Positions 283-21,978 of a stretch of 27,919 nucleotides of DNA are shown here, piece by piece. Origin of the DNA: an uncultured archaeon. GTDB taxonomy: Archaea > Asgardarchaeota > Lokiarchaeia > Sigyniarchaeales > SOKP01. The stretch is taken from the NCBI GenBank assembly GCA_964447495.1, contig CAYUTF010000029.1, positions 1-27,919 on the forward strand. The letters run 5' to 3'. Position 1 is the stretch's first letter. Each line of letters begins with the position of its first letter. The translations under genes and the position numbers were made by a program. The notes under the pieces are model-generated. The model saw nothing but the letters and a program-made list of their open reading frames with translations. It ran no database searches and had not been told where the DNA came from.

Positions 283-1431
283 CTAATAAAAAGGATTATG
301 ATATTGTGGTTTTTCTTCTGATTCAACGAACTTTTCTTTAATTTCTTTATCGATCAAACCCTCGATTTGGCATAAATATTCATATTCCTCTTTTAAACAG
401 AGAGTAATAGCGACACCTTTCTTGTTCATTCTTGAAGTTCTACCGATCCTATGCACATAATTTTCTGGATACATCGGAATATCATAATTAATTACATGCG
501 ATATATCTTCTATATCCAATCCACGTGCAGCGACATCTGTAGCAATAAGCATATTAATCTTATTATCCCTAAATTCCTTCAAAATTGTTTCTCGTTGAAG
601 CTGAGATAAATCTCCAGAAATCTCACCAGCATCATAATGCTTATATTTTAAACTTTTCATTTTTCTGGACAACCATGAAGCAGTTTTCTTGGTATTAGTG
701 AAAACAAGTGCTCTTGTAGGTTTCTCATATTGTAAAATTTTCAGAAATGTTTTGAATTTATTACGAAATCCATCAATTAAGTAATAATACTGCCTTGTAT
801 TTCTTACAGTTAATTCATCTTTGCTCAAATTGAGAAACTTAAATTGATTATTTGAGTAATTCTTAACCAATTCTCTAAATTCATAATGCATAGTAGCTGA
901 AAATAATAAGAATTGATAATTGGATTTAATCTGATTAAGAATATATTTTACATCGGGAGCAAATCCCATATCCCATAGACGATCTGCTTCATCTAAAACA
1001 ACAAATTTAACATTTTTTAGGCGAAGTTTTTTTCTTTTATAGAGATCGATGATCCTACCAGGAGTTCCGATAATTATATTTAGTCCATTTTCTAGTTTGC
1101 GGATCTGGTTATTAATTGAAACGCCACCATAGATTGGATATGCTTTTATCCCATGATTTCCAATATCCTTAAAAACACTATAAATTTGTTTAGCCAATTC
1201 CCTGGTTGGAACTAAAATTAATACTTCATTTTCAAGTTTTTGTACTTTTTCGATTATTGGTAAGATAAAAGCCAACGTCTTACCCGATCCTGTCTTAGCT
1301 TGCGCCATTACATGATTATTATCTAATATTAAAGGTATAGATTTCTGTTGGACAGGAGTAGGGTTTACTATATTTAATTTTTTCATTGCATTAATGCTAC
1401 TTTCACTAATGCCTAATTCTTTAAAATTCAA
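283..1431 (-). CDS. DEAD-box ATP-dependent RNA helicase (core only)
   Basis: Q motif (PTPVQ), AKTGSGKT, PTRELA, GG, TPGRI, DEAD, SAT, ARGLD and HRIGRT all present. TTG start. Confidence 0.97.
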   Translation of the reverse strand: MNFKELGISESSINAMKKLNIVNPTPVQQKSIPLILDNNHVMAQAKTGSGKTLAFILPIIEKVQKLENEVLILVPTRELAKQIYSVFKDIGNHGIKAYPIYGGVSINNQIRKLENGLNIIIGTPGRIIDLYKRKKLRLKNVKFVVLDEADRLWDMGFAPDVKYILNQIKSNYQFLLFSATMHYEFRELVKNYSNNQFKFLNLSKDELTVRNTRQYYYLIDGFRNKFKTFLKILQYEKPTRALVFTNTKKTASWLSRKMKSLKYKHYDAGEISGDLSQLQRETILKEFRDNKINMLIATDVAARGLDIEDISHVINYDIPMYPENYVHRIGRTSRMNKKGVAITLCLKEEYEYLCQIEGLIDKEIKEKFVESEEKPQYHNPFY

Positions 1432-1596: not shown

Positions 1597-3750
1597 TTAA
1601 GCGACCAGAATACGATTAAAAAAGTTATCCAGTTTAGCTAATTTAGTATTGATTATAATTCTCACTTTCTCTGAATTAATCTTAGGATTATTTAATACCA
1701 AATCCTGTACAATAAAATGATACTTCTTCCCTTTTTTTGCTAAAATTCGGTGAATTTCGTTATTTTCATTATATAAGGGAATAGGGAATGAAAAGGGTCT
1801 TTTATGAATATGCCTACTGGATTTAATGATTGCTATATTTCGTGATAACTCTGGAGTATTTAAAATTGCAGATAAATAATAGGCTTCTTCTTGAGAATCA
1901 GTTGAGTAATAATAATTATCTGAACCAATAATTATATTCTTTTTAGAGTTAATTAGTACAGAAGCCTTTAATTTTGAACCACTGGCATTATACACGACAA
2001 TATACTTTTTATTATTAGCCTGTTTGGACATCTTATTCCAATAATTTATGTTTGCGATAAGGGAATCTATCTTACTTGCAGCTTTCTTTTTGGCTTTATA
2101 AACACGATTCATTTCATTATAGAATTTTAAAGCTTTAGGAAATGATTCAAAATATTTCTGGTCAAATTTAAAATCCTTGGTAATTGGTAAAAACACGTTT
2201 CTTTTCTTTTTTATATAAAAGGGAATTAAATCCTTGTTTAAAAAAGTCTTATATCGAAACTGAGGCTCGATTTCTTTATTTGAAAACAAATGATACCAAT
2301 TCTTTTTTGAACGCTTTACTACTTCTTGATCAGAAGAAATAGATAGAGTATTCTCTAGTTTCTGATTAACTTCAAAAAAGACTAGGGTTCGAGGAACCAA
2401 TGTGGCCCCTTGGAAAAATTTATCTTTATACTCACTTTCTCTCATTTCATTTAAAAATTTTAAATCTTGTTCTGGTAAGATGATTTTTACTCCCTCTTCA
2501 TCAATATTGAAGCTATCATAAAAAATTTCTTCTGTAACATGGAGATTTTGATCTAATAATTTAGTTTTAATGGGATATTTTTCAGATATAGGAATTTTAT
2601 TCTTAGTACCAATAAACTCCGCTTTCAAACAAATATGATTGACATTAAAAACATAATTTTTGGGAAAGTCCCATATTTCTAAATTATTAAATATTGGAAA
2701 TAATCGAAATTTATAACAATGATCTCCGTTGAGAACACTTTTAGTCATGACGAAAAATATGGAACCCCCAATTTTTAAGAACTTTGAAGGTATAGCATAG
2801 AAGAAAATTGAAGCTAATTCAATGTGTGTTATATATTGACTTGTTGGTTTTATTTTCAAGGTATCGGATAAATTCCGTATCTTATTTTGATAGTTCTTAT
2901 CGTTTAAATCTTTATAGGTAAGCCAAGGAGGATTTCCAATAACTAAATCAAATGTATTGTTAATCTTTTTTAAATTAAAAGAATTGTTATTAATTAGATT
3001 CTCTGGAAATAATGAATCTATTAAAATAATTGAATTATTTAAATAATGAATATCAAATGAGTCTATAGTATCGTGTATCATAAAAGCTAGGTTAACCTTA
3101 GATGATAAAACTGCCAAAGGATTAATATCAAACCCATACACATTTTTTATCGCCTCTATTTTAGAATCAATGTCGCCCTTTGAATTCAAAATTATGCGAA
3201 TAATCTCAATTAGAAATGTTCCAGAACCACATGATGGATCTAAGATTTTTGAACCATACTTATATAAACTTTCAACCATTTTTTTCGCAAGATTTGGAAA
3301 TGTATAAAACTCACCAATCTTATGCCTTGTTATCATAAAAAAAATTTGTTGATATAGCTCTTGAAATAAGTCTTCTTTTTTTAAATTAATATCCAAGATT
3401 TTATTATTGAAATCTTTTAATAAGGTTGGACTTAATTTTGTCCAATTATAAATCTCAAATTCGCCAAAAATAGTTGTTTTTGGTGAAATAACCATATTGA
3501 GTTTATTTATAACAAATAATTCTAGAAGTAAAGCAAAATAGGTATGCTTTAAGAAAAGCTGAATATTAGCATCTTTACCATAAATATTATGAAAAAAAAG
3601 GTTCCATAAATCATACTTCTCTTGGAACTCCTTCTTATCTTTCTTAACTTCATTTTCAAGAAAGGAAAGAGACTTTTGGAAGAAGCTTGAGTTTAACCCA
3701 AATAACATTCCAATATCTTTAGATGTGATTACTTTTTTGTTCTCGACCAT
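1597..3750 (-). CDS. N6-adenine DNA methyltransferase (gamma class, Type IIG/Eco57I-like MTase-TRD), no evident nuclease domain
   Basis: GEFYT motif X, ILDPSCGSGTFL motif I, YGFDINP, FDLVIGNPPW motif IV, N-terminal helical segment LFLKHTYFALL, and a C-terminal TRD-like region (YYLSAILNT). Confidence 0.9.
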   Translation of the reverse strand: MVENKKVITSKDIGMLFGLNSSFFQKSLSFLENEVKKDKKEFQEKYDLWNLFFHNIYGKDANIQLFLKHTYFALLLELFVINKLNMVISPKTTIFGEFEIYNWTKLSPTLLKDFNNKILDINLKKEDLFQELYQQIFFMITRHKIGEFYTFPNLAKKMVESLYKYGSKILDPSCGSGTFLIEIIRIILNSKGDIDSKIEAIKNVYGFDINPLAVLSSKVNLAFMIHDTIDSFDIHYLNNSIILIDSLFPENLINNNSFNLKKINNTFDLVIGNPPWLTYKDLNDKNYQNKIRNLSDTLKIKPTSQYITHIELASIFFYAIPSKFLKIGGSIFFVMTKSVLNGDHCYKFRLFPIFNNLEIWDFPKNYVFNVNHICLKAEFIGTKNKIPISEKYPIKTKLLDQNLHVTEEIFYDSFNIDEEGVKIILPEQDLKFLNEMRESEYKDKFFQGATLVPRTLVFFEVNQKLENTLSISSDQEVVKRSKKNWYHLFSNKEIEPQFRYKTFLNKDLIPFYIKKKRNVFLPITKDFKFDQKYFESFPKALKFYNEMNRVYKAKKKAASKIDSLIANINYWNKMSKQANNKKYIVVYNASGSKLKASVLINSKKNIIIGSDNYYYSTDSQEEAYYLSAILNTPELSRNIAIIKSSRHIHKRPFSFPIPLYNENNEIHRILAKKGKKYHFIVQDLVLNNPKINSEKVRIIINTKLAKLDNFFNRILVA

Positions 3751-3895: not shown

Positions 3896-4441
3896 TCAGA
3901 CCTTTTTAGGTCTCATGAAGGATGGAAGCATTAAATTAAAAATCTCTGCTAATTTTCTTAATTGAGCAGGTTCTCTAATAATAGTGACGATAAGTATTGA
4001 TTTTTCTAAAGCTTCCTTGTCTAATGCGCCCCCGGAATAAATTGCTTCGTTAAAATTGAAAACTAATAAATATCTTACATTTGGATTATTAATGATTTTA
4101 ATTCCCGGAGTTGATTTAAGATCGTCATAAATTTCTTGGAATTCTCTGGTAATTGCCCCCCGATCATTAGTAATTATTAAGACAGCTATTCCTTTCTTGG
4201 TTAAATTTCTCAATTCAGTCGCATAAAACTTATCTATATGAGGACTTACAATATTTAGTTGATCTTTTGTAGAATAAATTATACTCATTAGATGGTCATT
4301 AAGTATATTTTTTCTGTCAGGTCCTCCAGAAGATTCTATGCTTGTCATACCAACTAATGAGAGAACTTTTTCTTCTAAACTTTCTACTTGCTGTTTAAGC
4401 CTTTGATTCTCCACTCGGAGTTCAATTATTCTATCTGACAT
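3896..4441 (-). CDS. coiled-coil + phospholipase D-fold protein with degenerate HKD motif
   Basis: N-terminal heptads (IIELRVENQRLKQQVESLEEKVLSL). PLD-like strands LNIVSPHID, KKGIAVLIIT and EAIYSGGAL. The expected HxKxxxxD position reads VRYLLVFN. Confidence 0.6.
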   Translation of the reverse strand: MSDRIIELRVENQRLKQQVESLEEKVLSLVGMTSIESSGGPDRKNILNDHLMSIIYSTKDQLNIVSPHIDKFYATELRNLTKKGIAVLIITNDRGAITREFQEIYDDLKSTPGIKIINNPNVRYLLVFNFNEAIYSGGALDKEALEKSILIVTIIREPAQLRKLAEIFNLMLPSFMRPKKV

Positions 4442-4526: not shown

Positions 4527-7109
4527 CTATTCTACCTTTTTCCATGGTTTCCCATATAAAGTATAACTCGAAATCGCCAAAGAACTTTGGACGTCAATAC
4601 TCATTATACCATCTTCAACAGTTAAATCTTTAGCTTTTTTCAAGGCAAGTTCAGTCAATTTGTTTGCCATACATATTTGACGTGCTTTAAGCAGTGACAC
4701 CCCTTGGCCATAATCCATAAATATATGATCATAGAAATTCTTTGTCAATTCTTTGGTCTCCTCATCAAAAATAGGATAATTATGAGAGATGATGCCAATA
4801 ATATATTCATAATCAAATTTTTCGGCAATATCACCAAAAATTCTTACTACATTGTTCAATTTCTTTCCAACTACATCAAAAAGTTGGGAATTAATAAATA
4901 ATAAGGGTGGTATTTTATGAGGATTTATTTTGATAGCGTTATTTATATCGGATATTGTTACAATTTCATTATCGTTAGTTAATAAGAAACTATTACTTGG
5001 ATTCCATTTAGAATAAAATATATTGCCAACGAGATGAATAATATGATATGCTCCTTGAGATATATGAGTTAAAATCTGTTCTCGGGTAGAATTATAATTA
5101 GATAATATTGTCATTTCATTAACTTCATCTCTATTATTAAAAAAATCCGTGATAAATTTCATTTCTGACAACCCTGCAGCAAATGGAAATATCAATTCTT
5201 TAGATTTAGTTTCCTCATTCCATTTCAAAGGTCCACTGGAATTCATTGAATCGATGATTAAAATATTATATCTTTTATTCGTCTCTCTATTTTGGCTACT
5301 TTCCTCTAAACGGTCAAAACTTATCCCTCCAAGGGAAGGTTCTCCGATAATATATCCGATTGAATACTTTAATAAGAAAAAGTTATTATCATAGACAAGT
5401 TCGAATGGAATAGTCATCTGATCTAAAATAAAATTGATTTCAGGAATCATATTCAATGCTTTTATTTCAAACGTTTTCAAAATTTTCCTTATGGTATTTG
5501 GCAGAAATAAATATAATATTCTCCCAAAATCGGTTAAGGATATTTCATACTCTTTCTTTTTATCGGAAAAAATATCACTATAAATGTCAATTATTTGCAT
5601 ATCATTCCAAAATTCATCTTTAATTCTGCCTTCTAAAATTTCACCAGTATTTGAGATCATTCGGTAAGAAATTAATCCTTTTGAATTAATCCGAAATATT
5701 ATTTGCTTAATAACAAAATTTTCATTTAGTAACTCAGCACTGGGCGTTACAACTTCAAATGAGTAAATTTCTCGCTCCAATGCCTTAGTTTCATTATAAA
5801 ATGTCTCTGGATCCGGAATCATGGAAACTATATTTTTGTCAAGATAAGAAACTAATTTTCGTGCCAATTCAAAATTTTGTTCTTCATAAATCGCCCTATA
5901 AAAGATCATTCTCCAGAAATCTTTTTGATCTAAAGAAAAAAATAACGATTTGAATTGCCATAAGAAATTACACGTGTAAAAGTAATGGTAAATCTGGGCA
6001 TTAGTTTGGGGTGATTTTAAATGAGTATCCAGTTTTTCCAAAGACTGTAATAGGAATTTTTTCTCTTTCATATCTACAAATTTCTTACACGCCTCAACCC
6101 ACAACTCAATGAGGATATTATCATATCCCAGATCAGTTTTATATAGGAATAAATCCTCCAAAAAATCGTAAATTTCAAAGGCTATTTCAAATTTATTTCT
6201 ATTTATTGAAAAATTGATGTATTTTCGTATATAAGTCACAGCATCGCCATATGATTGAAATTTTTGAATTTTCGAAAACATATTTTTAACAATAATTATA
6301 ATCCATGAGAATTCACCGATATAATTCAAATAGGAAACAAGGATTTCTAGATCTTCAATAATACTATTATATGTATTTTCATTTATAATGATTTTATTTA
6401 AATTTGTGAACTCACTTTTTAAATATCCCGGGATTCTATGTGATAAGATTTTTGCCATTTCTTTAATAAATTCATCGGGATCAGCAGTAAGTTGATAATT
6501 GATATTAATATTTTCTAATATAACGTATAAGAATAGAGCTCTTTTTGAGGGATCTAACTTAAATAAGATTTTGCCTAAAACCTCCATACTATTATAAAAA
6601 TATTCTTGTGGAATAACAGACTTTCTGAGATACATTAATAAAATCTGCAGTTCTACTAACTTTAAATGCTCCCCTCTTTCAATAACCTTAACACAATAAG
6701 AATTTATGAACCTTGTAATTCCTCTTGGGGATAAATTCTCCATTTCTATAAACGTCTTTAACAGATTGGTGGCAAAATTATTAAAGAGATAAAAGTCATC
6801 CAGTTTTGATAAAAACGAAAAGAAGCGCTTATATGCATCTATATATCGTATGATATCCACATCTATCTCATCATCTGTTCTCTTTATCAGAGAATTAATA
6901 TACATCCACCATGAGTTTGAAATTATCATTACTAATTGATGCTTTTTCTGAATATCTAACCATTCTGTCTTTTCGATATCAAAATAGAGATCGGTTAAAA
7001 GCCGATCCGCCCATCGATGATTTGCTGTCTGTAGTAATCTTCTGCCTTGAATGATTCTTTTTTGAAAATCTTCTAAAAACTTTTTTTTGGTAATTGCTTT
7101 GACTGACAT
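4527..7109 (-). CDS. helical-repeat (TPR-like) + CHAT-domain protein, probable pseudoprotease
   Basis: CHAT hallmarks: FGRILYLFLP, FILDQMTIPFELV, NSTREQILTHI, YHIIHLVGN, LLFINSQ, NFYDHIF...GVSLLKAR and terminal YTLYGKP. About 440 aa of all-helical-looking N-terminus. Confidence 0.75.
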   Translation of the reverse strand: MSVKAITKKKFLEDFQKRIIQGRRLLQTANHRWADRLLTDLYFDIEKTEWLDIQKKHQLVMIISNSWWMYINSLIKRTDDEIDVDIIRYIDAYKRFFSFLSKLDDFYLFNNFATNLLKTFIEMENLSPRGITRFINSYCVKVIERGEHLKLVELQILLMYLRKSVIPQEYFYNSMEVLGKILFKLDPSKRALFLYVILENININYQLTADPDEFIKEMAKILSHRIPGYLKSEFTNLNKIIINENTYNSIIEDLEILVSYLNYIGEFSWIIIIVKNMFSKIQKFQSYGDAVTYIRKYINFSINRNKFEIAFEIYDFLEDLFLYKTDLGYDNILIELWVEACKKFVDMKEKKFLLQSLEKLDTHLKSPQTNAQIYHYFYTCNFLWQFKSLFFSLDQKDFWRMIFYRAIYEEQNFELARKLVSYLDKNIVSMIPDPETFYNETKALEREIYSFEVVTPSAELLNENFVIKQIIFRINSKGLISYRMISNTGEILEGRIKDEFWNDMQIIDIYSDIFSDKKKEYEISLTDFGRILYLFLPNTIRKILKTFEIKALNMIPEINFILDQMTIPFELVYDNNFFLLKYSIGYIIGEPSLGGISFDRLEESSQNRETNKRYNILIIDSMNSSGPLKWNEETKSKELIFPFAAGLSEMKFITDFFNNRDEVNEMTILSNYNSTREQILTHISQGAYHIIHLVGNIFYSKWNPSNSFLLTNDNEIVTISDINNAIKINPHKIPPLLFINSQLFDVVGKKLNNVVRIFGDIAEKFDYEYIIGIISHNYPIFDEETKELTKNFYDHIFMDYGQGVSLLKARQICMANKLTELALKKAKDLTVEDGIMSIDVQSSLAISSYTLYGKPWKKVE

Positions 7110-7119
7110 GATTTTTTAT

Positions 7120-8307
7120 CTAAGATTCGTTTTCTAATTCATTCTTCTTTTCAGAAACTATATGTGGATTATCAATCCAACCCTTCTTTAATTGGTCCTT
7201 GGCAAATAATACTGAAGCTCCAATCCAAGAAAGATGTTCCCTTCCAGATGCTGCAACCACTTTAATCTTGTCTCTTAATTTCTCAGAGAAATAACTCTGA
7301 AGTTCACTCTGTAATCGCTCACCTAACCCTTGGATTAAGCTTCCACCACCAGATAAAATAATATTTGAAACTAGTTCTTGCCAATTTTCGCGCTCCCAAG
7401 TCTTTACAACCTTAGAAATCGCCTCAGCAAGACTAAAATAATCTACGTGAATCATTCTAGGATTGAATAATGGTTCAGATACTAAAAACCGTTCTTGATT
7501 AATCTTTAAATTAGTTCCATCTGGTAAATCAATTATACGATCATATTTTGTTAAGCCTTCTTTGACTCTTTTTTTTTCTTCTTCACAATTTAGTATGCAT
7601 AAGGACAATTTTTCTTTAATTTCCTTTGCAATAATGGAATCAAGGTAAAAATTTTTTCCACTTCCAATTTTCGATAAAATTAAGTTGAGAATATGATCAC
7701 TTAATTCTTTTCCAGCAATAGGAAATAGATCACGTGCCATAATGTTCGTAAACCCATGAAATATACTAGAAATGTAGGTATATGATTCTCCTAAATTCAC
7801 AATCACTCCACTAGATTTTTGCAATGTAGATAAAATTGCTTGACTTTCTGAGAGAAATAGTATAGAAGGAAAGTGGTATATATCAAAAAATATTTCTTGA
7901 AGCTTTGACTTTCCTAAATCTGAGATATAAAAGGGGGTTAAAATTATCAATGGTTGCTTAAAATGATATTCTTCTGGTATATTAAGTTGAGAATAATAAT
8001 GAAGAAAAAATTTGGAAAGAACATTATAGTTATTTTCTTTTATAAACTCATGCATTCTTAGTATGTTTTGATATTTTAAAGCTGCGTGTCCTACGAGATG
8101 GACTTGATCAGTATCTCCAAGATAGATATCTTCTAACCCATCAATTACGTCTGAAGTGAATAAATAATCAGAAATGTCTACATATACTGTGGGTGCAATA
8201 ATATCGGGAAAATCATCTAAAGCCCATCCCATTCTAAAAGTATTACTCCCAATATCCAATATTAATGGTCGCTTATAATCATTTTTAACAGAAGCCATGA
8301 ATCTCAT
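7120..8307 (-). CDS. divergent actin-family protein (Asgard actin-related protein)
   Basis: Colinear with actin throughout: LILDIGSNTFRMGWALDDFP (phosphate 1), SGVIVNLGES (phosphate 2), IAGKELSDHI, KEIKEKL, LPDG...INQERF...EPLFNP, NIILSGGGSLIQGLGERLQSEL, REHLSWIGASVL. Confidence 0.93.
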   Translation of the reverse strand: MRFMASVKNDYKRPLILDIGSNTFRMGWALDDFPDIIAPTVYVDISDYLFTSDVIDGLEDIYLGDTDQVHLVGHAALKYQNILRMHEFIKENNYNVLSKFFLHYYSQLNIPEEYHFKQPLIILTPFYISDLGKSKLQEIFFDIYHFPSILFLSESQAILSTLQKSSGVIVNLGESYTYISSIFHGFTNIMARDLFPIAGKELSDHILNLILSKIGSGKNFYLDSIIAKEIKEKLSLCILNCEEEKKRVKEGLTKYDRIIDLPDGTNLKINQERFLVSEPLFNPRMIHVDYFSLAEAISKVVKTWERENWQELVSNIILSGGGSLIQGLGERLQSELQSYFSEKLRDKIKVVAASGREHLSWIGASVLFAKDQLKKGWIDNPHIVSEKKNELENES

Positions 8308-8329
8308 TAACCCTATATATTAATATACC

Positions 8330-8342
8330 TACTTAAATAACT
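8330..8342 (-). promoter_or_regulatory. possible TATA box for a leaderless actin-CHAT transcript
   Basis: Minus strand TTATTTAAG lies about 25 nt upstream of the actin ATG at 8307. The AT-rich background makes this weak. Confidence 0.3.
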
Positions 8343-8446
8343 GCAATAATAGTACTTCAAAAACGCTATCTGTTTATATCTATCCATAAAAGAAGTATTA
8401 TTTATATTTGAGCAGAAAAAAGAGAAGACCATGTTAGAAGATTTTT

Positions 8447-9190
8447 CTACGGAAGAAAACTATTTTCATGAACAAATTCATCTGTTAACCGTTTTAATTG
8501 ATATTCTTTCACTTGCAATTCTAACAAACCTAATACTCTTTTAAATTCGCTAGACATCGATTCTATATCTATTTCTGAAATCAATTCTACTTGATCTCTT
8601 TTTACTTTAAATTGTTCCAAATGTATTTGAATTTTTTCATGCATATTATTAATGGAAGAAACTAAATCCTCCGTATTTTTCTTAGTAATCTTCCTCATTT
8701 TCCTAAGAATTGATAATATTGAAGATACGGAATTTTCCCATCGTTCATAACGATCTGAATATCCTGAAATCATCTCCTCAAAAAATACTGCTAATTTTTC
8801 ATAAATTCCCCCTTTTTTTGAAAATGAAGGTTCCTTTTTAGTTGAAGGTGCCTTTATTTCTTCTGGTTTTTCCTCTTTAATTTCAACTTGCGCATTGTCC
8901 ATCTGTTGAGTTAGTTGTGTTCGATTTTTTAATGGTTCTCTTTCAGACAAGGGAACTGCTTCCATCATATAATCTTCCGCAATTTTTTTTTTGCTCTCAT
9001 AAGAAAGTTGAGGCTCAATCTTCTTTTCTTCTTTTTGAATAGAAATGTATCCTTTTTCCTCAGAAAAACCTTCTAATATCCCTTGAAGGTCTGATTTAGC
9101 AGATTTTGATGATTTCAAGGCAGCATCTAAAGTGTATTGAGGAGCCTCCTCACTTTCTTTTTGCTTATCTTTCTTCTTTTTTTTAGCCAT
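8447..9190 (-). CDS. hypothetical protein: Lys/Glu-rich disordered N-half, helical coiled-coil C-half
   Basis: MAKKKKKDKQKE start, low-complexity E/K region, then about 115 aa of amphipathic heptad helices. Starts 35 nt after the AbrB-ACT stop codon. Confidence 0.7.
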   Translation of the reverse strand: MAKKKKKDKQKESEEAPQYTLDAALKSSKSAKSDLQGILEGFSEEKGYISIQKEEKKIEPQLSYESKKKIAEDYMMEAVPLSEREPLKNRTQLTQQMDNAQVEIKEEKPEEIKAPSTKKEPSFSKKGGIYEKLAVFFEEMISGYSDRYERWENSVSSILSILRKMRKITKKNTEDLVSSINNMHEKIQIHLEQFKVKRDQVELISEIDIESMSSEFKRVLGLLELQVKEYQLKRLTDEFVHENSFLP

Positions 9191-9225: not shown

Positions 9226-9630
9226 TTATTCCAGCGAAAGTACTTCAACTTTTATAGCATTTCCTTCCTTCATTAACTTCTGCTTCAATTCATCGATCGA
9301 AAAATCAGGGCTTTCCGAGATTACAGTCCATACCGCAGTTTTATCCTTCTCAACTATTACTGCTTCACTATATATCATACTTAACCCATAATCACCAAAC
9401 ATCGAAGCTAATTTAGCTAATGCGCCAGGTATATCTGCCATAGTGATTTTAAGTTTAATCGGAACCTTTTCATCGCCCAACCCTATAGGAGATATTCGTA
9501 TTTCCTTGGTTTCCGAGTCACTCACCATCATAAGCTGAGAATTGGTAGTAAGCCCAAGACTTTTTCGAATGATCTGAGGAATTACAATCCGTCCTCGGTT
9601 ATCAATGGTGAGAATTTTAATTTCTTTCAT
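9226..9630 (-). CDS. AbrB/MazE/SpoVT-family DNA-binding domain fused to ACT domain
   Basis: TIDNRGRIVIPQIIRKSLGL (AbrB signature) followed by ITMADIPGALAKLASMFGDYGLSM (ACT signature). Confidence 0.9.
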   Translation of the reverse strand: MKEIKILTIDNRGRIVIPQIIRKSLGLTTNSQLMMVSDSETKEIRISPIGLGDEKVPIKLKITMADIPGALAKLASMFGDYGLSMIYSEAVIVEKDKTAVWTVISESPDFSIDELKQKLMKEGNAIKVEVLSLE

Positions 9631-9840: not shown

Positions 9841-12066
9841 TTATTCCTTATGTGCTTTGAGCTTTACTGTTAAATCGCGTGCTCTCTTAGAATACCAGAT
9901 CAAAAGCTCACCAGCATCTTCAGGCTTGAAATACTCGCCACCGCATAATTGTGCTGCGCGGGTCATTAACTCATCATCAGGGTTTCCCAAACCAACTATA
10001 TATATTACGACATTTGGGTTATCTGCGAACATTTTTATTGCTTTAAAGAAATCGTCTCCATCGGTTGGAACACCATCGGTAAGAAGGATTATCATAGATG
10101 GTTGATTTGGACTAATTCTATTAAACTCTGTAAGAACTTGATATGCCTTTACCATAGCTTGTCCCATATTCGTAGATTGGCCATACGCATTTCCTATACG
10201 ATCTACAATTAAACGAGCAGCTTCTTCAAGAACACCTTTTTTACCGCTAGCAGAATCCATATAGTAGCCTTCTTGAAACGGTAATATTTGAGCTTCATCG
10301 GCAAACCGTATAACGGACACTTTCTCACCAAATCCACGGCCAACTTTTTCACTTAGAAAGAGCACTGCTGCAAATGCCGCAGAAATTCTCCGCGGAATAT
10401 TGATACCTGCTTTAAAATTCTTTAGGAATTCTTGAATTTCTCGTGATTCCATTGCCGCTTTGATACCTTCTATAGCGGGAGCGATGTTGGTCACAAACAC
10501 ATCACGTGCCATCATCGAGCGGCTTATATCTATGATGAGAATTGCGTTAAATGGTATTAATCCTGTTGGTGTAAGATTTATTGTCGTATTCTCGGTGATT
10601 TGTGCGAGAATATCCCCTGTTAAATCGGGTGTTGTATTTAGAATTGAGCAAGCGATATTTACCGCATTCCATCGTAATTTGATTCCTTTGAAGATAATAT
10701 AATTCGAAAGCCATCCTTTCAATGAATCAACGTTCTGTCGCGCAGTGCTGATAATTTCCCACATATTTTCTCCCGAAATCGGATTAATTCCTAAAGACAC
10801 ACTTTGAAGGGGAATGATTGGTCGTAAGTTTTTATACACTTTTACTTCAAAACTACCAATACCAGAGGCTTCTAAAATCTCACTATCAATAATGATGGTA
10901 TTATTTGGAGCAGATTCAAGAATCTCTGCTTTAGCAGCACCGATTGCACCAGTAAGCTCATCTTCAAAAGCAAGTACATCATCTTGGTTAATCGAGAGCG
11001 TATATTGGGTACGTGGACTCACTAAACAATAACCTAGCAAATTTGGTTGCGACTGCACTTCCAGCATCATTTCAGAAGCTTTTTGAATGGGTGGTTCAGT
11101 TGAATAGACTACAATTTGTTGAGCTTGTATGTTTGTATCTTGTTTCGTATCGCGGCTCATTCTGATCTCAGTAGGGTTAATTAGAGCTTGGCTGACTCGA
11201 GCTGATCCTACTGATCGTGTGAGTGGATCCTCCCATGCTACAAGCAATCCAGGAGCAAGTCCTAATTGCTGAATTACAGTGCTACTGAGCTGAATCTTGC
11301 CACCTTCAATACCATTATCTACAATGGGATTTAAAATAATCCCTCCTTTTTGATTTTGAAGGGTATATATATCAATTTGATTTGAATAAGGTGTAGGTGA
11401 TGGAGCTTCTATCCCCATATCTTGACCTGGCATAGGTGGGACTTGTTGAGGAGGTGGTGTTGGAACCATTTGAGGCTGAGGTGTGGGTGAAGGTGGTCGA
11501 GGCATAGGAGTGACTTGTGGAATAGAGGCTTGGGTGGGTTTTGGTGCTGGTGGAGGCGTAGGCTGCGGCATTGGAGGCTGAAAAGGTTGAGATATAGGTG
11601 TTGGCTGAGTTGCTGGTTCGGGAGGTATTTGGGGAAGTGGTGCTGCTCTTGGTTGGGGCATGGGCCTAGAAGGTGCCATCTGAGGTGGAGGAGTAGGTAA
11701 AGGCGTTAAAGATGAATCTGTAGCAGAGCGAACTTGAGGCTGAGGTACTGGAACAGGGCGAGGTGATGGAACCTTTGGAATTTGAAGTTTAGGTGGAGCT
11801 AATCCAGTACTACTGACTGGACGAAGGATCAATTCTACTCCCGAAAATTCTAAGGCGTCCACAATATTCTTTGAGATTTGAGCAGCAAAATCTAACACCA
11901 TATTTGAAATTTCTACAACAGCATTAATTTTTTTAGCATTATCAGGATTTTCGACCTCAATGGAAGTGCCATTTGAAACATGTAATTTCGTTGCATTTTC
12001 TTGGCAGATTACTACTTTATTTGTAGAGCTTTCACTTACATCGACAAATATTTTTAATTCACTCAT
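9841..12066 (-). CDS. multidomain protein: Cdc48-N-like double-psi barrel, proline-rich linker, two more barrels + Cdc48 Nc-like subdomain, C-terminal vWA domain
   Basis: vWA MIDAS motif intact (AILIIDISRSM, STNMGQAM, IILLTDG, YIVGLG, CGGEYF). Three similar segments resemble the Cdc48/VAT N-terminal barrel (VVICQENATKLHVSNG, IQLSSTVIQQLGLAPG, CLVSPRTQYTLSINQD). About 140 aa P/Q-rich tract. Confidence 0.8.
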   Translation of the reverse strand: MSELKIFVDVSESSTNKVVICQENATKLHVSNGTSIEVENPDNAKKINAVVEISNMVLDFAAQISKNIVDALEFSGVELILRPVSSTGLAPPKLQIPKVPSPRPVPVPQPQVRSATDSSLTPLPTPPPQMAPSRPMPQPRAAPLPQIPPEPATQPTPISQPFQPPMPQPTPPPAPKPTQASIPQVTPMPRPPSPTPQPQMVPTPPPQQVPPMPGQDMGIEAPSPTPYSNQIDIYTLQNQKGGIILNPIVDNGIEGGKIQLSSTVIQQLGLAPGLLVAWEDPLTRSVGSARVSQALINPTEIRMSRDTKQDTNIQAQQIVVYSTEPPIQKASEMMLEVQSQPNLLGYCLVSPRTQYTLSINQDDVLAFEDELTGAIGAAKAEILESAPNNTIIIDSEILEASGIGSFEVKVYKNLRPIIPLQSVSLGINPISGENMWEIISTARQNVDSLKGWLSNYIIFKGIKLRWNAVNIACSILNTTPDLTGDILAQITENTTINLTPTGLIPFNAILIIDISRSMMARDVFVTNIAPAIEGIKAAMESREIQEFLKNFKAGINIPRRISAAFAAVLFLSEKVGRGFGEKVSVIRFADEAQILPFQEGYYMDSASGKKGVLEEAARLIVDRIGNAYGQSTNMGQAMVKAYQVLTEFNRISPNQPSMIILLTDGVPTDGDDFFKAIKMFADNPNVVIYIVGLGNPDDELMTRAAQLCGGEYFKPEDAGELLIWYSKRARDLTVKLKAHKE

Positions 12067-12107: not shown

Positions 12108-12497
12108 TTATCTAATAGGATAACGCACACCTATCTCTTTGGCATAATAGCGAAATACAGATACAATTTTCCCTAAATCTTCGGTTTTTCTGCTTGCCCC
12201 CATCAGAAAAAAGCGTCCTGCGGCACTCAGAATAATAAATGCATTATCTCCTCTTAATACTACTTCAAGTAAATTAAGATATCCTAATGCATCAATAGAA
12301 TCTTGACCACTCTGCATTACAACAGCACTTAGGCTGGAGAATAAATCGGGGTCCACATCATAATCTGGTATGCATGAAAATGCAAGTCGCAAGCCATCAC
12401 GTGTTACAAGAGCAAGAGCCTCGAGTTCTGTGTGCTCTGTGATGTTTCCAAGAAAATTTGATAGACTATGGGCTTCCTCTGGGGTTAGATCACTCAT
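12108..12497 (-). CDS. roadblock/LC7 (MglB-like) domain protein
   Basis: Helix, then LEALALVTRDGLRLA, DPDLFSSLSA helix, LLEVVLRGDNAFIILSAAG, and DLGKI terminal helix. Typical roadblock pattern, 129 aa. Confidence 0.88.
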   Translation of the reverse strand: MSDLTPEEAHSLSNFLGNITEHTELEALALVTRDGLRLAFSCIPDYDVDPDLFSSLSAVVMQSGQDSIDALGYLNLLEVVLRGDNAFIILSAAGRFFLMGASRKTEDLGKIVSVFRYYAKEIGVRYPIR

Positions 12498-21845: not shown

Positions 21846-21978
21846 TGCCGGTGGTGGGATATGAGCCCACGACCTCCAGATTACATCCGTCTGACCCATT
21901 TCTCTAGAAGGATTATGAGTCTGGTGCTGAAGTTAAGCAACCTAATTGCTGCTTTATAACCAACTAAGCCACACCGGC
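21846..21978 (-). tRNA. trnM: tRNA-Met(CAT), elongator type, with two introns (22/23: 21955-21929; anticodon loop 37/38 or 38/39: 32 nt, about 21913-21881)
   Basis: Spliced: GCCGGTG TG GCTT AGTTGGTTA TAGC A CCAGA CTCATAA TCTGG AGGTC GTGGG CTCATAT CCCAC CACCGGC A. Acceptor, anticodon and T stems pair perfectly. The G1-C72 acceptor argues against initiator tRNA. T-loop is atypical. Confidence 0.85.

Follow-up and report, generated by a model that had tools for sequence, protein, structure and literature searches.

Introduction

The protease-like domain of c-FLIP and the caspase-like domain of Raptor have no protease activity and bind other proteins. In the Arp2/3 complex, the dynactin pointed-end complex, and the complex with DNase I, actin-fold subunits are held by non-actin subunits via the pointed-end face or the D-loop. 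Caspase-like domains preceded by helical repeats are found in Csx29 (TPR-CHAT) of type III-E CRISPR (Craspase), in separase, which is known together with securin and belongs to clan CD, and in the transmembrane anti-sigma factor DdvA, which carries a TPR-CHAT domain. DdvA is encoded in a bacterial defence island, and it keeps a canonical H862/C907 dyad (PMC11506125).

In the window, i.e., the whole stretch of 27,919 nucleotides of archaeal DNA that was analysed, an actin-family gene is followed by a gene for an 860-aa protein with the same order of domains. The original prediction described the two as an actin coupled to a dead CHAT protease. The pair consists of the following features:

8307..7120, minus strand: divergent actin-related protein (ARP, paralogue class 4), 395 aa; Pfam Actin, 165.1 bits
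7119-7110, minus strand: 10-nt ARP-CHAT spacer (coding-strand sequence ATAAAAAATC), separating the stop codon of the ARP gene from the start codon of the CHAT gene
7109..4527, minus strand: solenoid-CHAT pseudoprotease, 860 aa; AF2 model and Foldseek

The reading preferred here, to which a probability of roughly 60% was assigned, is that the two proteins form a non-catalytic, order-specific complex in which the solenoid would clamp the pointed-end face of a dedicated ARP.

Gene pair and its linkage across genomes

An ORF check placed both reading frames on the minus strand at the coordinates given earlier. The positions of the ARP stop codon (TAG, 7122-7120), the spacer, and the CHAT-protein start codon (ATG, 7109-7107) agreed with the 10-nt gap that had been described. 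The gap is real here, and it is one case of a generally short spacer, which could be measured in 47 of 49 loci and ranged from -11 to 95 nt, with a median of about 25. In two sister families (f2 and f3), which belong to the same Asgard order as the window's own family (f1), the genes overlapped by 4 nt or were separated by 1-5 nt. A short spacer or overlap would fit co-translation of both proteins in matched amounts. Judging from sequence comparison, the true start of the ARP is likely Met4 (ATG, 8298-8296), because homologues start at this residue and a recorded version of the protein has 392 aa. The CHAT-protein gene was present in one copy in the genome.

The ARP gene lay directly upstream of the CHAT gene on the same strand in all 49 fetched loci, among them 7/7 loci of f2 and f3, where identity to the window's proteins was 21-25% for the CHAT proteins and about 29-39% for the ARPs. 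Among 134 other f1 genomes, both genes were present in 112, neither in 15, and one only in 7; these last were all fragments or genes at contig ends. In the genomes with both genes, comparison of the gene coordinates by eye showed adjacency in 110, a split over two contig ends in one, and a 3.85-kb insertion in one. Five genomes without the CHAT gene, one of them closed in a single contig, lacked the class-4 ARP as well; however, this co-absence is not independent evidence, because adjacent genes fall to a single deletion or a missing contig. Overall, orthology, conserved linkage, and co-absence were shown across genomes for the gene pair, and the expectation of linkage in other Asgard genomes held within the order but not Asgard-wide, as the pair was confined to this one order.

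In the case of the genome with the insertion (G227), a TIR-domain gene and an ArdC-like gene part the ARP from the CHAT gene; thus, strict translational coupling is dispensable. Two genomes (G164 and G191) had in-frame stops inside the CHAT reading frame, for which either gene decay or errors in sequencing may be responsible. Of seven long actin-family proteins, none was an ARP-CHAT fusion.

Fold of the 860-aa protein

The AF2 model of the 860-aa protein (mean pLDDT 80.7) consisted of alpha-solenoid helices (aa 5-447), a small mixed domain (aa 467-546), and an alpha/beta domain (aa 610-860), from which two main features were defined:

5769..7109, minus strand: N-terminal alpha-solenoid, aa 1-447; AF2 helices 5-447 and conservation profile
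4530..5282, minus strand: caspase-like CHAT domain with dead active site, aa ~610-860; VIA-align and Pfam CHAT

The solenoid was the best-conserved region, with 53 invariant columns in aa 1-242 versus 31 in aa 601-860 in a 40-sequence alignment of the CHAT-protein family (A1). The match to Pfam CHAT (PF12770) was marginal, at 28.4 bits against a cut-off of 24 over aa 566-723; of three sister-family orthologues, one reached 27.3 bits, one 14.4 bits, and one had no match. With VIA-align, aa 612-860 matched SAVED-CHAT 8tl0 with a Z of 16.5 (rmsd 3.2 A, 186 aligned residues), caspase-7 with 12.9-13.1, and metacaspases with 12-13 (metacaspase 4, 12.8), and the match was reproduced without Foldseek pre-selection. 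The C-terminal domain accordingly has the caspase-like fold that had been expected of it.

In the full-length Foldseek search, the best matches were DdvA (E 1.3e-7; VIA-align Z 13.9), Csx29/TPR-CHAT (E 2e-7 to 1e-5; Z 11-13), and separase (E 8e-6 to 1e-3; Z ~10). These matches bore out the proposed architecture, in which N-terminal helical repeats and a C-terminal CHAT domain are joined in one chain, as in TPR-CHAT proteins and separase. Each relative differs from the 860-aa protein in other respects. DdvA is a membrane protein with an intact dyad. In the case of Csx29, the partner is Cas7-11 and not an ARP, the His-Cys dyad is missing in the entire clade studied here, and no CRISPR genes were present in the window; a point of likeness is that the N-terminal repeats of the 860-aa protein are predicted, from a complex model, to hold its partner. 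Compared with separase, the 860-aa protein is much smaller, dead, and without a cohesin or securin context, so that the likeness is one of architecture only. The pseudo-caspase scaffolds c-FLIP (3h13, Z 9.8) and Raptor (5wbi, Z 8.6) share the caspase-like fold, but they have no detectable sequence relationship to the 860-aa protein, other partners, and another domain order.

Loss of the catalytic dyad

The motifs IIHLVGNI and LLFINSQ occupy aa 690-697 and aa 736-742, respectively. The two dyad positions, assigned by alignment to the family profile, are as follows:

5024-5022, minus strand: Asn696 codon, catalytic-His column
4886-4884, minus strand: Gln742 codon, catalytic-Cys column

To read these columns, 123 representatives (P0241-P0363) were aligned to the CHAT-protein family profile and divided into 50 strong matches (E <= 6.6e-14) and 73 weaker ones (E 3.4e-13 to 9.7e-4). 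Column 696 was covered by 56 of the weaker matches and held His in 54 of them; all 54 had Cys in the aligned NxC segment, with 38 exactly at column 742. In contrast, the strong matches had no His among the 29 covering column 696 (24 N, 2 Y, 1 V, 1 S, 1 T) and no Cys among the 28 covering column 742 (15 Q, 10 R, 2 K, 1 L). In the 120 closest homologues, Asn696 was found in 120/120 and Gln742 in 119/120. The substitutions of His by Asn and Cys by Gln were thus correctly recognised, other CHAT proteins carry His (54/56) together with the Cys (all 54), and the His-Cys dyad was absent at 696/742 from every family member examined, orthologues included. Together with the caspase-like fold, the dead columns across the family support the pseudoprotease reading, and the absent dyad, as read from the alignments, argues against regulated proteolysis of a defined substrate.

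That the CHAT domain stays a protease by means of other residues is hardly credible. His692 lies ahead of the inactivated site, and Cys occurs one column off 742 in a few distantly related members. However, His692 is present in only 69/120 homologues (Ile or Val in 50, Asn in 1), Tyr occupies the His column wherever the neighbouring Cys occurs, and no family member combines His and Cys.

The ARP as a divergent actin paralogue

The ARP matched Pfam Actin (PF00022) with 165.1 bits (cut-off 27), its aa 12-378 corresponding to profile positions 4-392 of 410, and its closest solved relatives were actins and Arp1 (E ~1e-35 to 1e-32). The actin family here comprises four paralogue classes, of which the CHAT-linked ARP is the fourth and most divergent. 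Its identity to the three other actin-family genes of the same genome was 24-29%, and the CHAT-linked ARPs formed their own clade (support 100/98) apart from the three other classes, with the loci grouped by taxonomic family. Hence, the assignment of this gene to the actin family was right, but tree and identities make it a fast-evolving ARP paralogue and not the filament-forming Lokiactin. Identification of the ARP as Lokiactin itself was considered and rejected, given the separate clade and only 24-25% identity to the genome's high-scoring actin, which is encoded on another contig and matches Pfam Actin with 442 bits.

In actin, the phosphate loops, Gln137, His161, and K213 are residues of nucleotide binding and hydrolysis. 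Compared with yeast actin (1yag), the phosphate loops of the ARP are degenerate: DNGSG is changed to DIGSN, and D154-S-G-D-G-V-T-H161 to N-L-G-E-S-Y-T-Y. The ARP therefore departs from the canonical actin-family ATPases in phosphate loops 1 and 2 and in its hydrolysis residues; it retains the adenosine motif (SGGG) and an equivalent of K213. The equivalents of Gln137 and His161 vary across the CHAT-linked clade; Gln137 is retained in most f1 members and replaced by K, M, D, A, or V in others. Because of the degenerate loops, a part as structural or switch subunit is more likely for the ARP than one as polymerising ATPase, as far as its sequence indicates.

Predicted complex of the ARP and the solenoid

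A complex of the pseudoprotease with the actin relative, as originally proposed, was supported by a predicted model of the ARP with CHAT residues 1-600, which passed with an ipSAE of 0.70 (runs of 0.65, 0.75, and 0.70), the best of three controls being 0.00. The pass mark was reached by 58/80 solved complexes and 2/110 mismatched pairs; this calibration is approximate and only rough here, because user-made alignments were supplied. At least 75% of the contacts were common between runs, and the partner pLDDT was at least 85. By sequence, no solved chain matched the 860-aa protein or its solenoid, which makes it unlikely that the model passed by reproducing a known structure. In the model, the solenoid clamps the D-loop-equivalent insert and subdomain 4 of the ARP, i.e., the pointed-end face, through the following two features:

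6687..7061, minus strand: solenoid patch predicted to bind the ARP, aa 17-141; complex-model interface residues
8113..8175, minus strand: ARP residues 45-65 (ISDYLFTSDVIDGLEDIYLGD), insert replacing the actin D-loop; alignment and predicted contacts

The ARP insert was the main predicted contact of the solenoid (residues 45, 48-50, and 52-65). It is family-specific and corresponds to actin residues ~38-50 in the alignment, with 11 residues inserted; in 119 homologues, G57 and L58 were found in 119/119, and S52, D53, I55, and E59 in at least 97%. On the solenoid side, H31, W33, D91, Y93, R95, F120, S127, G130, and S137 were present in 120/120 homologues. Conservation of interface residues exceeded that of the remaining residues in both the ARP (0.79 vs 0.67) and the CHAT protein (0.725 vs 0.66). 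The predicted contact resembles those in Arp2/3, dynactin, and DNase I; however, no homology of the solenoid-CHAT protein to any Arp2/3 or dynactin subunit was seen, and the ARP clade is order-specific.

The two proteins could instead be co-transcribed and serve the same process with no mutual binding, the complex model being a false positive. The two mismatched pairs that reached the mark, the rough calibration, and the genome that tolerates the 3.85-kb insertion fit this explanation. Nevertheless, it is improbable, since the three controls scored 0.00, the contacts are consistent, the interface residues are conserved, and adjacency is maintained at 21-25% CHAT-protein identity in the sister families. 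Binding of the ARP to the CHAT protein is a prediction of the model. That the complex is obligate, and that it acts as chaperone, anchor, or nucleator, as first suggested, is what we infer.

The site of the predicted contact also bears on a different possibility. The D-loop and pointed-end face make the longitudinal contacts of actin filaments, and DNase I blocks actin polymerisation there. A solenoid-CHAT protein placed on the equivalent insert and subdomain 4 might act as a sequestering chaperone that keeps the ARP monomeric and inactive until a signal frees it, i.e., a regulated inhibitor or assembly factor and not a permanent scaffold. Asn696 and Gln742 are invariant, which hints at a pocket that is still under constraint and possibly ligand-sensing, as would suit such regulation. 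However, the degenerate phosphate loops and the variable Gln137 and His161 equivalents speak against a polymerising ATPase in need of sequestration, and the tight 1:1 gene coupling throughout the order better fits a stable subunit pair. Sequestration is therefore regarded as unlikely, although it is the more serious of these two alternatives.

Larger cassette and neighbouring genes

The pair is real, as had been proposed for a two-gene unit, and it sits within a cassette of three to four genes, in which a disordered/coiled-coil protein is encoded upstream of the pair and, in most loci, a PLD-fold protein downstream:

8447..9190, minus strand: u247, 247 aa, conserved upstream neighbour of the ARP
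3896..4441, minus strand: PLDl181, 181 aa, usual downstream neighbour; AF2 and VIA-align

The N-terminal half of u247 is Lys/Glu-rich and probably disordered, and the C-terminal ~120 aa are helical and conserved, with conserved motifs in an alignment of 19 sequences. A homologue was found directly upstream of the ARP in 19/20 loci with 5-kb flanks, the 20th being a 3.2-kb contig. No Pfam family matched u247 above cut-off, and an Atlas search gave only an archaeal cluster without a name.

PLDl181 followed the CHAT gene in 17/20 long and 25/29 short loci. Its AF2 model (mean pLDDT 83.7) showed a long N-terminal helix (aa 2-29), a PLD/Nuc fold, and a C-terminal tail, LPSFMR. The score against Pfam PLDc_2 (19.5 bits) was under the cut-off of 27, and the Nuc-like fold was recognised by structure: VIA-align matched NucT 6ehi (Z 18.8, rmsd 2.2 A, 142 aa), Nuc 1bys (Z 17.0), and FAM83B DUF1669 (Z 16.2). 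The HKD motif, HxK(x)4D, was absent: alignments of 43 and 21 sequences showed neither H-x-K nor a conserved His or Lys where the motif would lie, while L172, P173, F175, M176, and R177 were invariant. FAM83 DUF1669 and other non-catalytic PLD folds likewise combine a Nuc-like fold with missing catalytic residues; unlike FAM83 DUF1669, PLDl181 starts with a coiled-coil helix and ends in an invariant LPSFMR tail, and the likeness is one of fold only, at 12-16% identity in structural alignments. The ...LPSFMR-COOH end resembles the product of a cut after Arg, and separase cleaves after Arg (PMC11506125).

Further downstream lie a 717-aa gene, which PADLOC matched to type IIG restriction-modification models (E 5e-34), and next to it a DEAD-box helicase gene. 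A defence or conflict system, with a CHAT effector and a PLD nuclease beside this type IIG-like methyltransferase and helicase, would agree with that match, with the frequency of CHAT and PLD domains in defence systems, and with the CBASS and CRISPR contexts of the nearest CHAT structures. Against this very improbable explanation, both the CHAT protein and PLDl181 are without catalytic residues, and the methyltransferase and helicase are syntenic in f1 only. Moreover, none of the four cassette proteins had a significant PADLOC match: PADLOC-DB gave none at E <= 0.01 for the ARP, CHAT protein, and u247, and only a sub-threshold GajB match for PLDl181 (E 0.0034, 14.1 bits). The single-copy CHAT gene, order-wide synteny, and family-wise ARP tree are also unlike patchy defence islands.

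Proposed role

In the preferred reading, the ARP and the CHAT protein would be subunits of one non-catalytic complex specific to the Lokiarchaeia-type order of f1-f3. The 860-aa protein would descend from TPR-CHAT-type cysteine proteases and, having lost the His-Cys dyad, would therefore act as a scaffold. Its solenoid (aa 17-141) would clamp the pointed-end face of the ARP, formed by the insert that replaces the D-loop in subdomain 2 and by subdomain 4, and the barbed-end face would be left free. Probably, u247 and the coiled-coil pseudo-PLD PLDl181 are in the same assembly. The complex may act on the Lokiactin cytoskeleton, e.g., as a pointed-end anchor, a cap, or a filament seed at the barbed-end face.

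A bolder version is speculative and, on balance, doubtful: an actin-organising machine of pseudoenzymes, independent of Arp2/3, in which the separase-like dead protease would cap the pointed end of the ARP with its degenerate nucleotide-binding loops and the barbed-end face of the ARP would seed or anchor Lokiactin filaments, while the Asn696/Gln742 site would permanently hold a peptide, the PLDl181 tail LPSFMR-COOH being a candidate. For the biology of this order, the ARP-CHAT pairing gives a so far unexplained archaeal actin paralogue a testable role.

Gene pair and its linkage across genomes

The window is contig C29 of an archaeal source assembly of 3.8 Mb with 98% completeness, and its G+C content is approximately 30%. 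The two genes under study were located as follows:

8307..7120, minus strand: actin-family ORF of 395 aa, encoding the actin-related protein (ARP)
7109..4527, minus strand: ORF of 860 aa, encoding the CHAT protein, starting 10 nt after the ARP ORF

The original prediction described an actin gene followed, after a 10-nt gap, by a CHAT/separase-like gene, and the ORF coordinates agreed with this; the two motifs that it quoted were also found, IIHLVGNI at aa 690–697 and LLFINSQ at aa 736–742 of the 860-aa protein. The ARP scored 165.1 bits with Pfam Actin, and Met4 is its probable start, since this is where the homologues begin and a record of a 392-aa version exists. For the 860-aa protein, Pfam CHAT (aa 566–723) scored 28.4 bits, a marginal match above the cut-off of 24.

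The CHAT protein was searched for in 400 genomes of the phylum, and full-length relatives were present only in three families of a single order, namely, the home family f1 (117 of 134 genomes), f2 (1 of 1), and f3 (7 of 14). The f3 proteins were 24–26% identical to that of the window, and matches outside these families were weak and confined to the CHAT domain. Forty-nine loci were fetched, comprising the 29 best-matching ones and 20 picked to represent the range, 7 of them from f2 and f3, and the ARP gene lay directly upstream on the same strand in all 49 (tblastn). The spacer between the genes, measured in 47 of these loci, ranged from −11 to 95 nt with a median of approximately 25 nt, and in f2 and f3, the genes overlapped by 4 nt or were separated by 1–5 nt. 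The spacer values of two loci were artefactual because both genes share a reading frame.

In a second search, the ARP was sought at E ≤ 1e-80 in 134 other f1 genomes, 114 of which gave a match, and the coordinates were compared by eye with those of the CHAT search. Both genes were present in 112 genomes, neither in 15, a CHAT fragment only in 5, and an ARP fragment only in 2; in all seven single-gene genomes, the gene was a fragment or lay at a contig end. The ARP gene was upstream and adjacent in 110 of the 112 genomes with both genes, the exceptions being G225, with the genes on two contig ends, and G227, with a 3.85-kb insertion. The linkage expected of partners was borne out in other genomes of the order. 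Five CHAT-less genomes, one of them a closed single contig, had no ARP of the window's class (class 4), their best ARP-profile match of approximately 186 bits being at the level of Lokiactin cross-hits. As the genes are neighbours, this co-absence is not independent evidence, though it does at least fit the link. None of seven ARP matches (E ≤ 1e-10) among proteins of 693–2000 aa carried a CHAT domain, which is weak evidence regarding an ARP–CHAT fusion because long proteins crowd the word search.

The insertion in G227 (locus L083, C35:8500-17600) lies between the ARP gene at 1145-2299 and the CHAT gene at 6135-8726. A TIR-domain gene (PF13676, E 4.7e-16) was found in it, along with an ArdC-N-like gene and small ORFs without an assigned function, so that it resembles a piece of accessory or defence cargo inserted into the cassette.

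Fold of the CHAT protein and loss of its catalytic dyad

The 860-aa protein was modelled with AlphaFold2 from a 40-sequence alignment (mean pLDDT 80.7, pTM 0.60), and the following regions were distinguished:

aa 5–447: all-helical solenoid
aa 467–546: small beta/alpha region
aa 610–860: alpha/beta domain

The segment at aa 570–609 was conserved and of low confidence in the model. When the model was compared with the PDB using Foldseek, full-length TPR-CHAT-type proteins ranked top; the anti-sigma factor DdvA matched with E 1.3e-7, Csx29/TPR-CHAT of Craspase with E 2e-7 to 1e-5, and separases with E 8e-6 to 1e-3. In structure alignment with VIA-align, SAVED-CHAT (8tl0) aligned to aa 612–860 with a Z score of 16.5 (186 residues, rmsd 3.2 Å), and caspase-7 and metacaspases had Z scores of 12–13. 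A further run, independent of Foldseek, agreed with this and added the pseudo-caspase c-FLIP and the caspase-like domain of Raptor, with Z scores of 9.8 and 8.6, respectively. The modelled C-terminal domain has a caspase-like fold, as had been proposed. A PDB profile search with the family alignment returned no solved relative by sequence, with one chance match at E 0.21; the kinship to known structures is visible by Pfam and fold only.

Only 124 of 1.84 billion representative proteins were matched at E ≤ 0.001 in a profile search, and 123 of these (P0241–P0363) were aligned to the CHAT-family profile. The 73 weaker matches (E 3.4e-13 to 9.7e-4) covered the C-terminal domain only and were ordinary CHAT proteins; His occupied column 696 in 54 of the 56 that covered it, in motifs such as IHYAGH, and all 54 His-bearing matches had Cys in the aligned FLNAC-type segment. 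The 50 strong matches (E ≤ 6.6e-14), many of them fragments, were the CHAT-protein family itself. Here, His was found at column 696 in 0 of 29 sequences (Asn 24, Tyr 2, Val 1, Ser 1, Thr 1) and Cys at column 742 in 0 of 28 (Gln 15, Arg 10, Lys 2, Leu 1), so that the dyad loss first read from the window's own gene extends to every strong family match covering these columns. Among the 120 closest homologues (57–81% identity), Asn696 was invariant and Gln742 was present in 119. Such invariant replacements point to continuing constraint on the former active-site pocket rather than to mere decay. The 860-aa protein is a solenoid-CHAT pseudoprotease.

His692 was rejected as a substitute catalytic residue because it occurs in only 69 of the 120 closest homologues. 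In two genomes, the CHAT reading frame contained in-frame stops, TGA and TAA in two pieces in G164 (C48:2206-4685) and two TAA in G191 (C3:104886-107468), which may reflect gene decay, frameshifts, or assembly error.

The ARP as a divergent actin paralogue

The window's genome contains four actin-family genes, and the ARP was 24–29% identical to the other three. The same four classes were present in four other genomes of the order, with Pfam Actin scores of approximately 413–445, 260–300, 200–240, and 160 or below, and the window's ARP represents the lowest-scoring class. In a maximum-likelihood tree of 36 actin-family sequences, the CHAT-linked ARPs formed one clade (ultrafast bootstrap/SH-aLRT 100/98); branches were long in this clade and very short in the top-scoring class. 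The earlier designation as an actin held for the family, by Pfam, while the tree and identities place the protein not with Lokiactin but in a fourth, divergent ARP class. The closed sister-family genome G143 has two more very divergent actin-fold genes (C1:2932410-2933186 and C1:2628649-2629614; loci L073 and L079); these two cluster with each other, have long branches, and fall outside the four common classes.

Cultured members of the group have a Lokiactin cytoskeleton and carry three further actin homologues. According to passages of PMC9834061, four actin homologues occur in one cultured member, three of them ARPs and the fourth Lokiactin, whose transcripts are severalfold more abundant. 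The ARPs are described there only as having complex evolution and lower transcript levels, and these passages make no mention of a CHAT partner.

The ARP family profile was aligned to yeast actin (1yag), and a 35-sequence ARP alignment was inspected. The phosphate-1 loop DNGSG of yeast actin is DIGSN in the ARP, and the phosphate-2 segment D154-S-G-D-G-V-T-H161 is N-L-G-E-S-Y-T-Y. The Gln137 equivalent was retained in most f1 ARPs and substituted in others, and the adenosine motif and the Lys213 equivalent were retained. At the D-loop position, the ARP has a family-specific, well-conserved segment, DYLF.SDVI.GLEDIF, which is 11 residues longer. These positions matter for ATP hydrolysis and polymerisation of actin, which suggests that the ARP is not a normal polymerising ATPase.

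Predicted contact between the ARP and the solenoid

The complex proposed for the two proteins was modelled with residues 1–600 of the CHAT protein, which precede its caspase-like domain, and residues 4–395 of the ARP, each with its own alignment. The complex score was 0.70 (runs 0.65, 0.75, and 0.70), compared with 0.00 for the best of three controls. Of 80 solved complexes, 58 reach the score mark that the pair passed, as do 2 of 110 mismatched pairs; these counts are only rough with user-made alignments. At least 75% of contacts agreed among runs, and the partner pLDDT was at least 85. The pass is unlikely to reflect a memorised structure, given that the solenoid has no solved relative. The model supports ARP–solenoid binding but does not show it.

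In the predicted interface, solenoid residues 17–141 contact ARP residues 45–65 (the insert replacing the D-loop), 78–83, 221/223, and 262–264, the last being PDG, aligned to actin P243-D244-G245. The predicted contact is the pointed-end face of the ARP, formed by subdomains 2 and 4. Among 119–120 homologues, H31, W33, D91, Y93, R95, F120, S127, G130, and S137 of the solenoid and G57, L58, Y79, I82, L83, and P262 of the ARP were invariant interface residues. K94 of the solenoid also belongs to the predicted interface. Mean conservation at the interface versus elsewhere was 0.79 versus 0.67 for the ARP and 0.725 versus 0.66 for the CHAT protein.

Wider cassette and neighbouring genes

Two further genes flank the pair:

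8447-9190, minus strand: u247, 247 aa, upstream of the ARP gene
3896-4441, minus strand: PLDl181, 181 aa, downstream of the CHAT gene

A u247 homologue was present in 19 of 20 long-flank loci; the N-terminal half of the protein is rich in Lys and Glu and varies in length, and the C-terminal part is helical and conserved. It matched no known family, with only sub-threshold matches in Pfam and only an unnamed archaeal cluster (0.88) in the Atlas. Downstream, 17 of the 20 long loci and 25 of the 29 short ones had a PLDl181 homologue; the three loci of one genus all lacked it. The PLDl181 model (pLDDT 83.7) consists of a long N-terminal helix and a Nuc-type PLD fold, to which NucT (VIA-align Z 18.8, rmsd 2.2 Å, 142 residues), Nuc (Z 17.0), and the pseudo-PLD domain of FAM83B (Z 16.2) aligned. 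The HKD motif was absent from PLDl181 and its aligned homologues, and the C-terminal residues LPSFMR, which end the protein, were invariant. The cassette therefore combines CHAT and PLD folds without catalytic residues with an ARP whose ATPase loops are degenerate.

Several observations make a defence function of the cassette unlikely: the catalytic residues have been lost, none of the four proteins had a significant PADLOC match (ARP, CHAT protein, and u247 none; PLDl181 only a sub-threshold match to GajB, E 0.0034), the CHAT gene is single-copy in the window's genome, and synteny is kept across the whole order. A defence island as the main explanation was rejected on the same catalytic, PADLOC, and synteny evidence.

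The surrounding genes were as follows:

283-1431, minus strand: DEAD-box helicase, downstream of the cassette
1597-3750, minus strand: type IIG-like N6 methyltransferase, 717 aa (PADLOC REase_MTase_IIG, E 5e-34)
9226-9630, minus strand: AbrB/ACT gene, 134 aa, with an AbrB/MazE-type DNA-binding domain and an ACT domain
9841-12066, minus strand: VWA gene, 741 aa, with a C-terminal VWA domain and a Pro-rich linker of ~150 aa (about aa 90–235)
12108-12497, minus strand: Roadblock/LC7 gene, adjoining the VWA gene

The upstream AbrB/ACT and VWA genes and the downstream methyltransferase and helicase genes were syntenic within f1, and none was found in the f3 loci. The AbrB/ACT gene was kept upstream of u247 in f1 and f2 (36–66% identity; the match in the one f2 locus was weak), and its product could regulate the cassette in response to a small molecule. 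The VWA gene was syntenic with the cassette in f1 at 59–79% identity, and the Pro-rich linker accounts for a bump in G+C and GC skew at 10–12 kb. The methyltransferase lay near the cassette in most f1 loci (31–56% identity), usually directly downstream, a synteny unusually stable for a restriction-modification-type gene. Elsewhere in the window, Rfam matched a tRNA of 133 nt at 21846-21978 (minus strand, 43.1 bits), long enough for an intron; ARAGORN found no tRNA in the window.

Proposed function and significance

The best-supported reading is that the ARP and the CHAT protein would form a stable, non-catalytic complex, in which a protease-derived scaffold would hold a dedicated ARP by its pointed-end face. 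The main rival is that the CHAT protein sequesters or chaperones the ARP. In the scaffold complex, the two flanking coiled-coil proteins, u247 and PLDl181, would probably join, and the free barbed-end face of the ARP may act as a seed, cap, or anchor on the Lokiactin cytoskeleton. We infer this cytoskeletal role only from the predicted interface geometry and by analogy with Arp2/3, the dynactin pointed-end complex, and the DNase I–actin contact.

The TPR-CHAT architecture, the ARP, and the pseudo-PLD are of known kinds. The fixed ARP–pseudoprotease pair, the predicted pointed-end clamp, and the co-occurrence of two enzyme folds lacking catalytic residues with degenerate ARP loops are new. In full texts outside supplements and subscription journals, no paper was found that ties an Asgard actin or ARP to a CHAT, caspase-like, or separase-like protein, and the features listed above had no earlier description there. 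For one ARP class, the analysis names a concrete partner that is conserved, together with the residues of a predicted interface. An ARP that had lacked an explanation thus becomes part of a complex that can be tested, which is of interest for Asgard cell biology. Moreover, the complex would be a clear example among prokaryotes of a TPR-CHAT protease that has become a scaffold.
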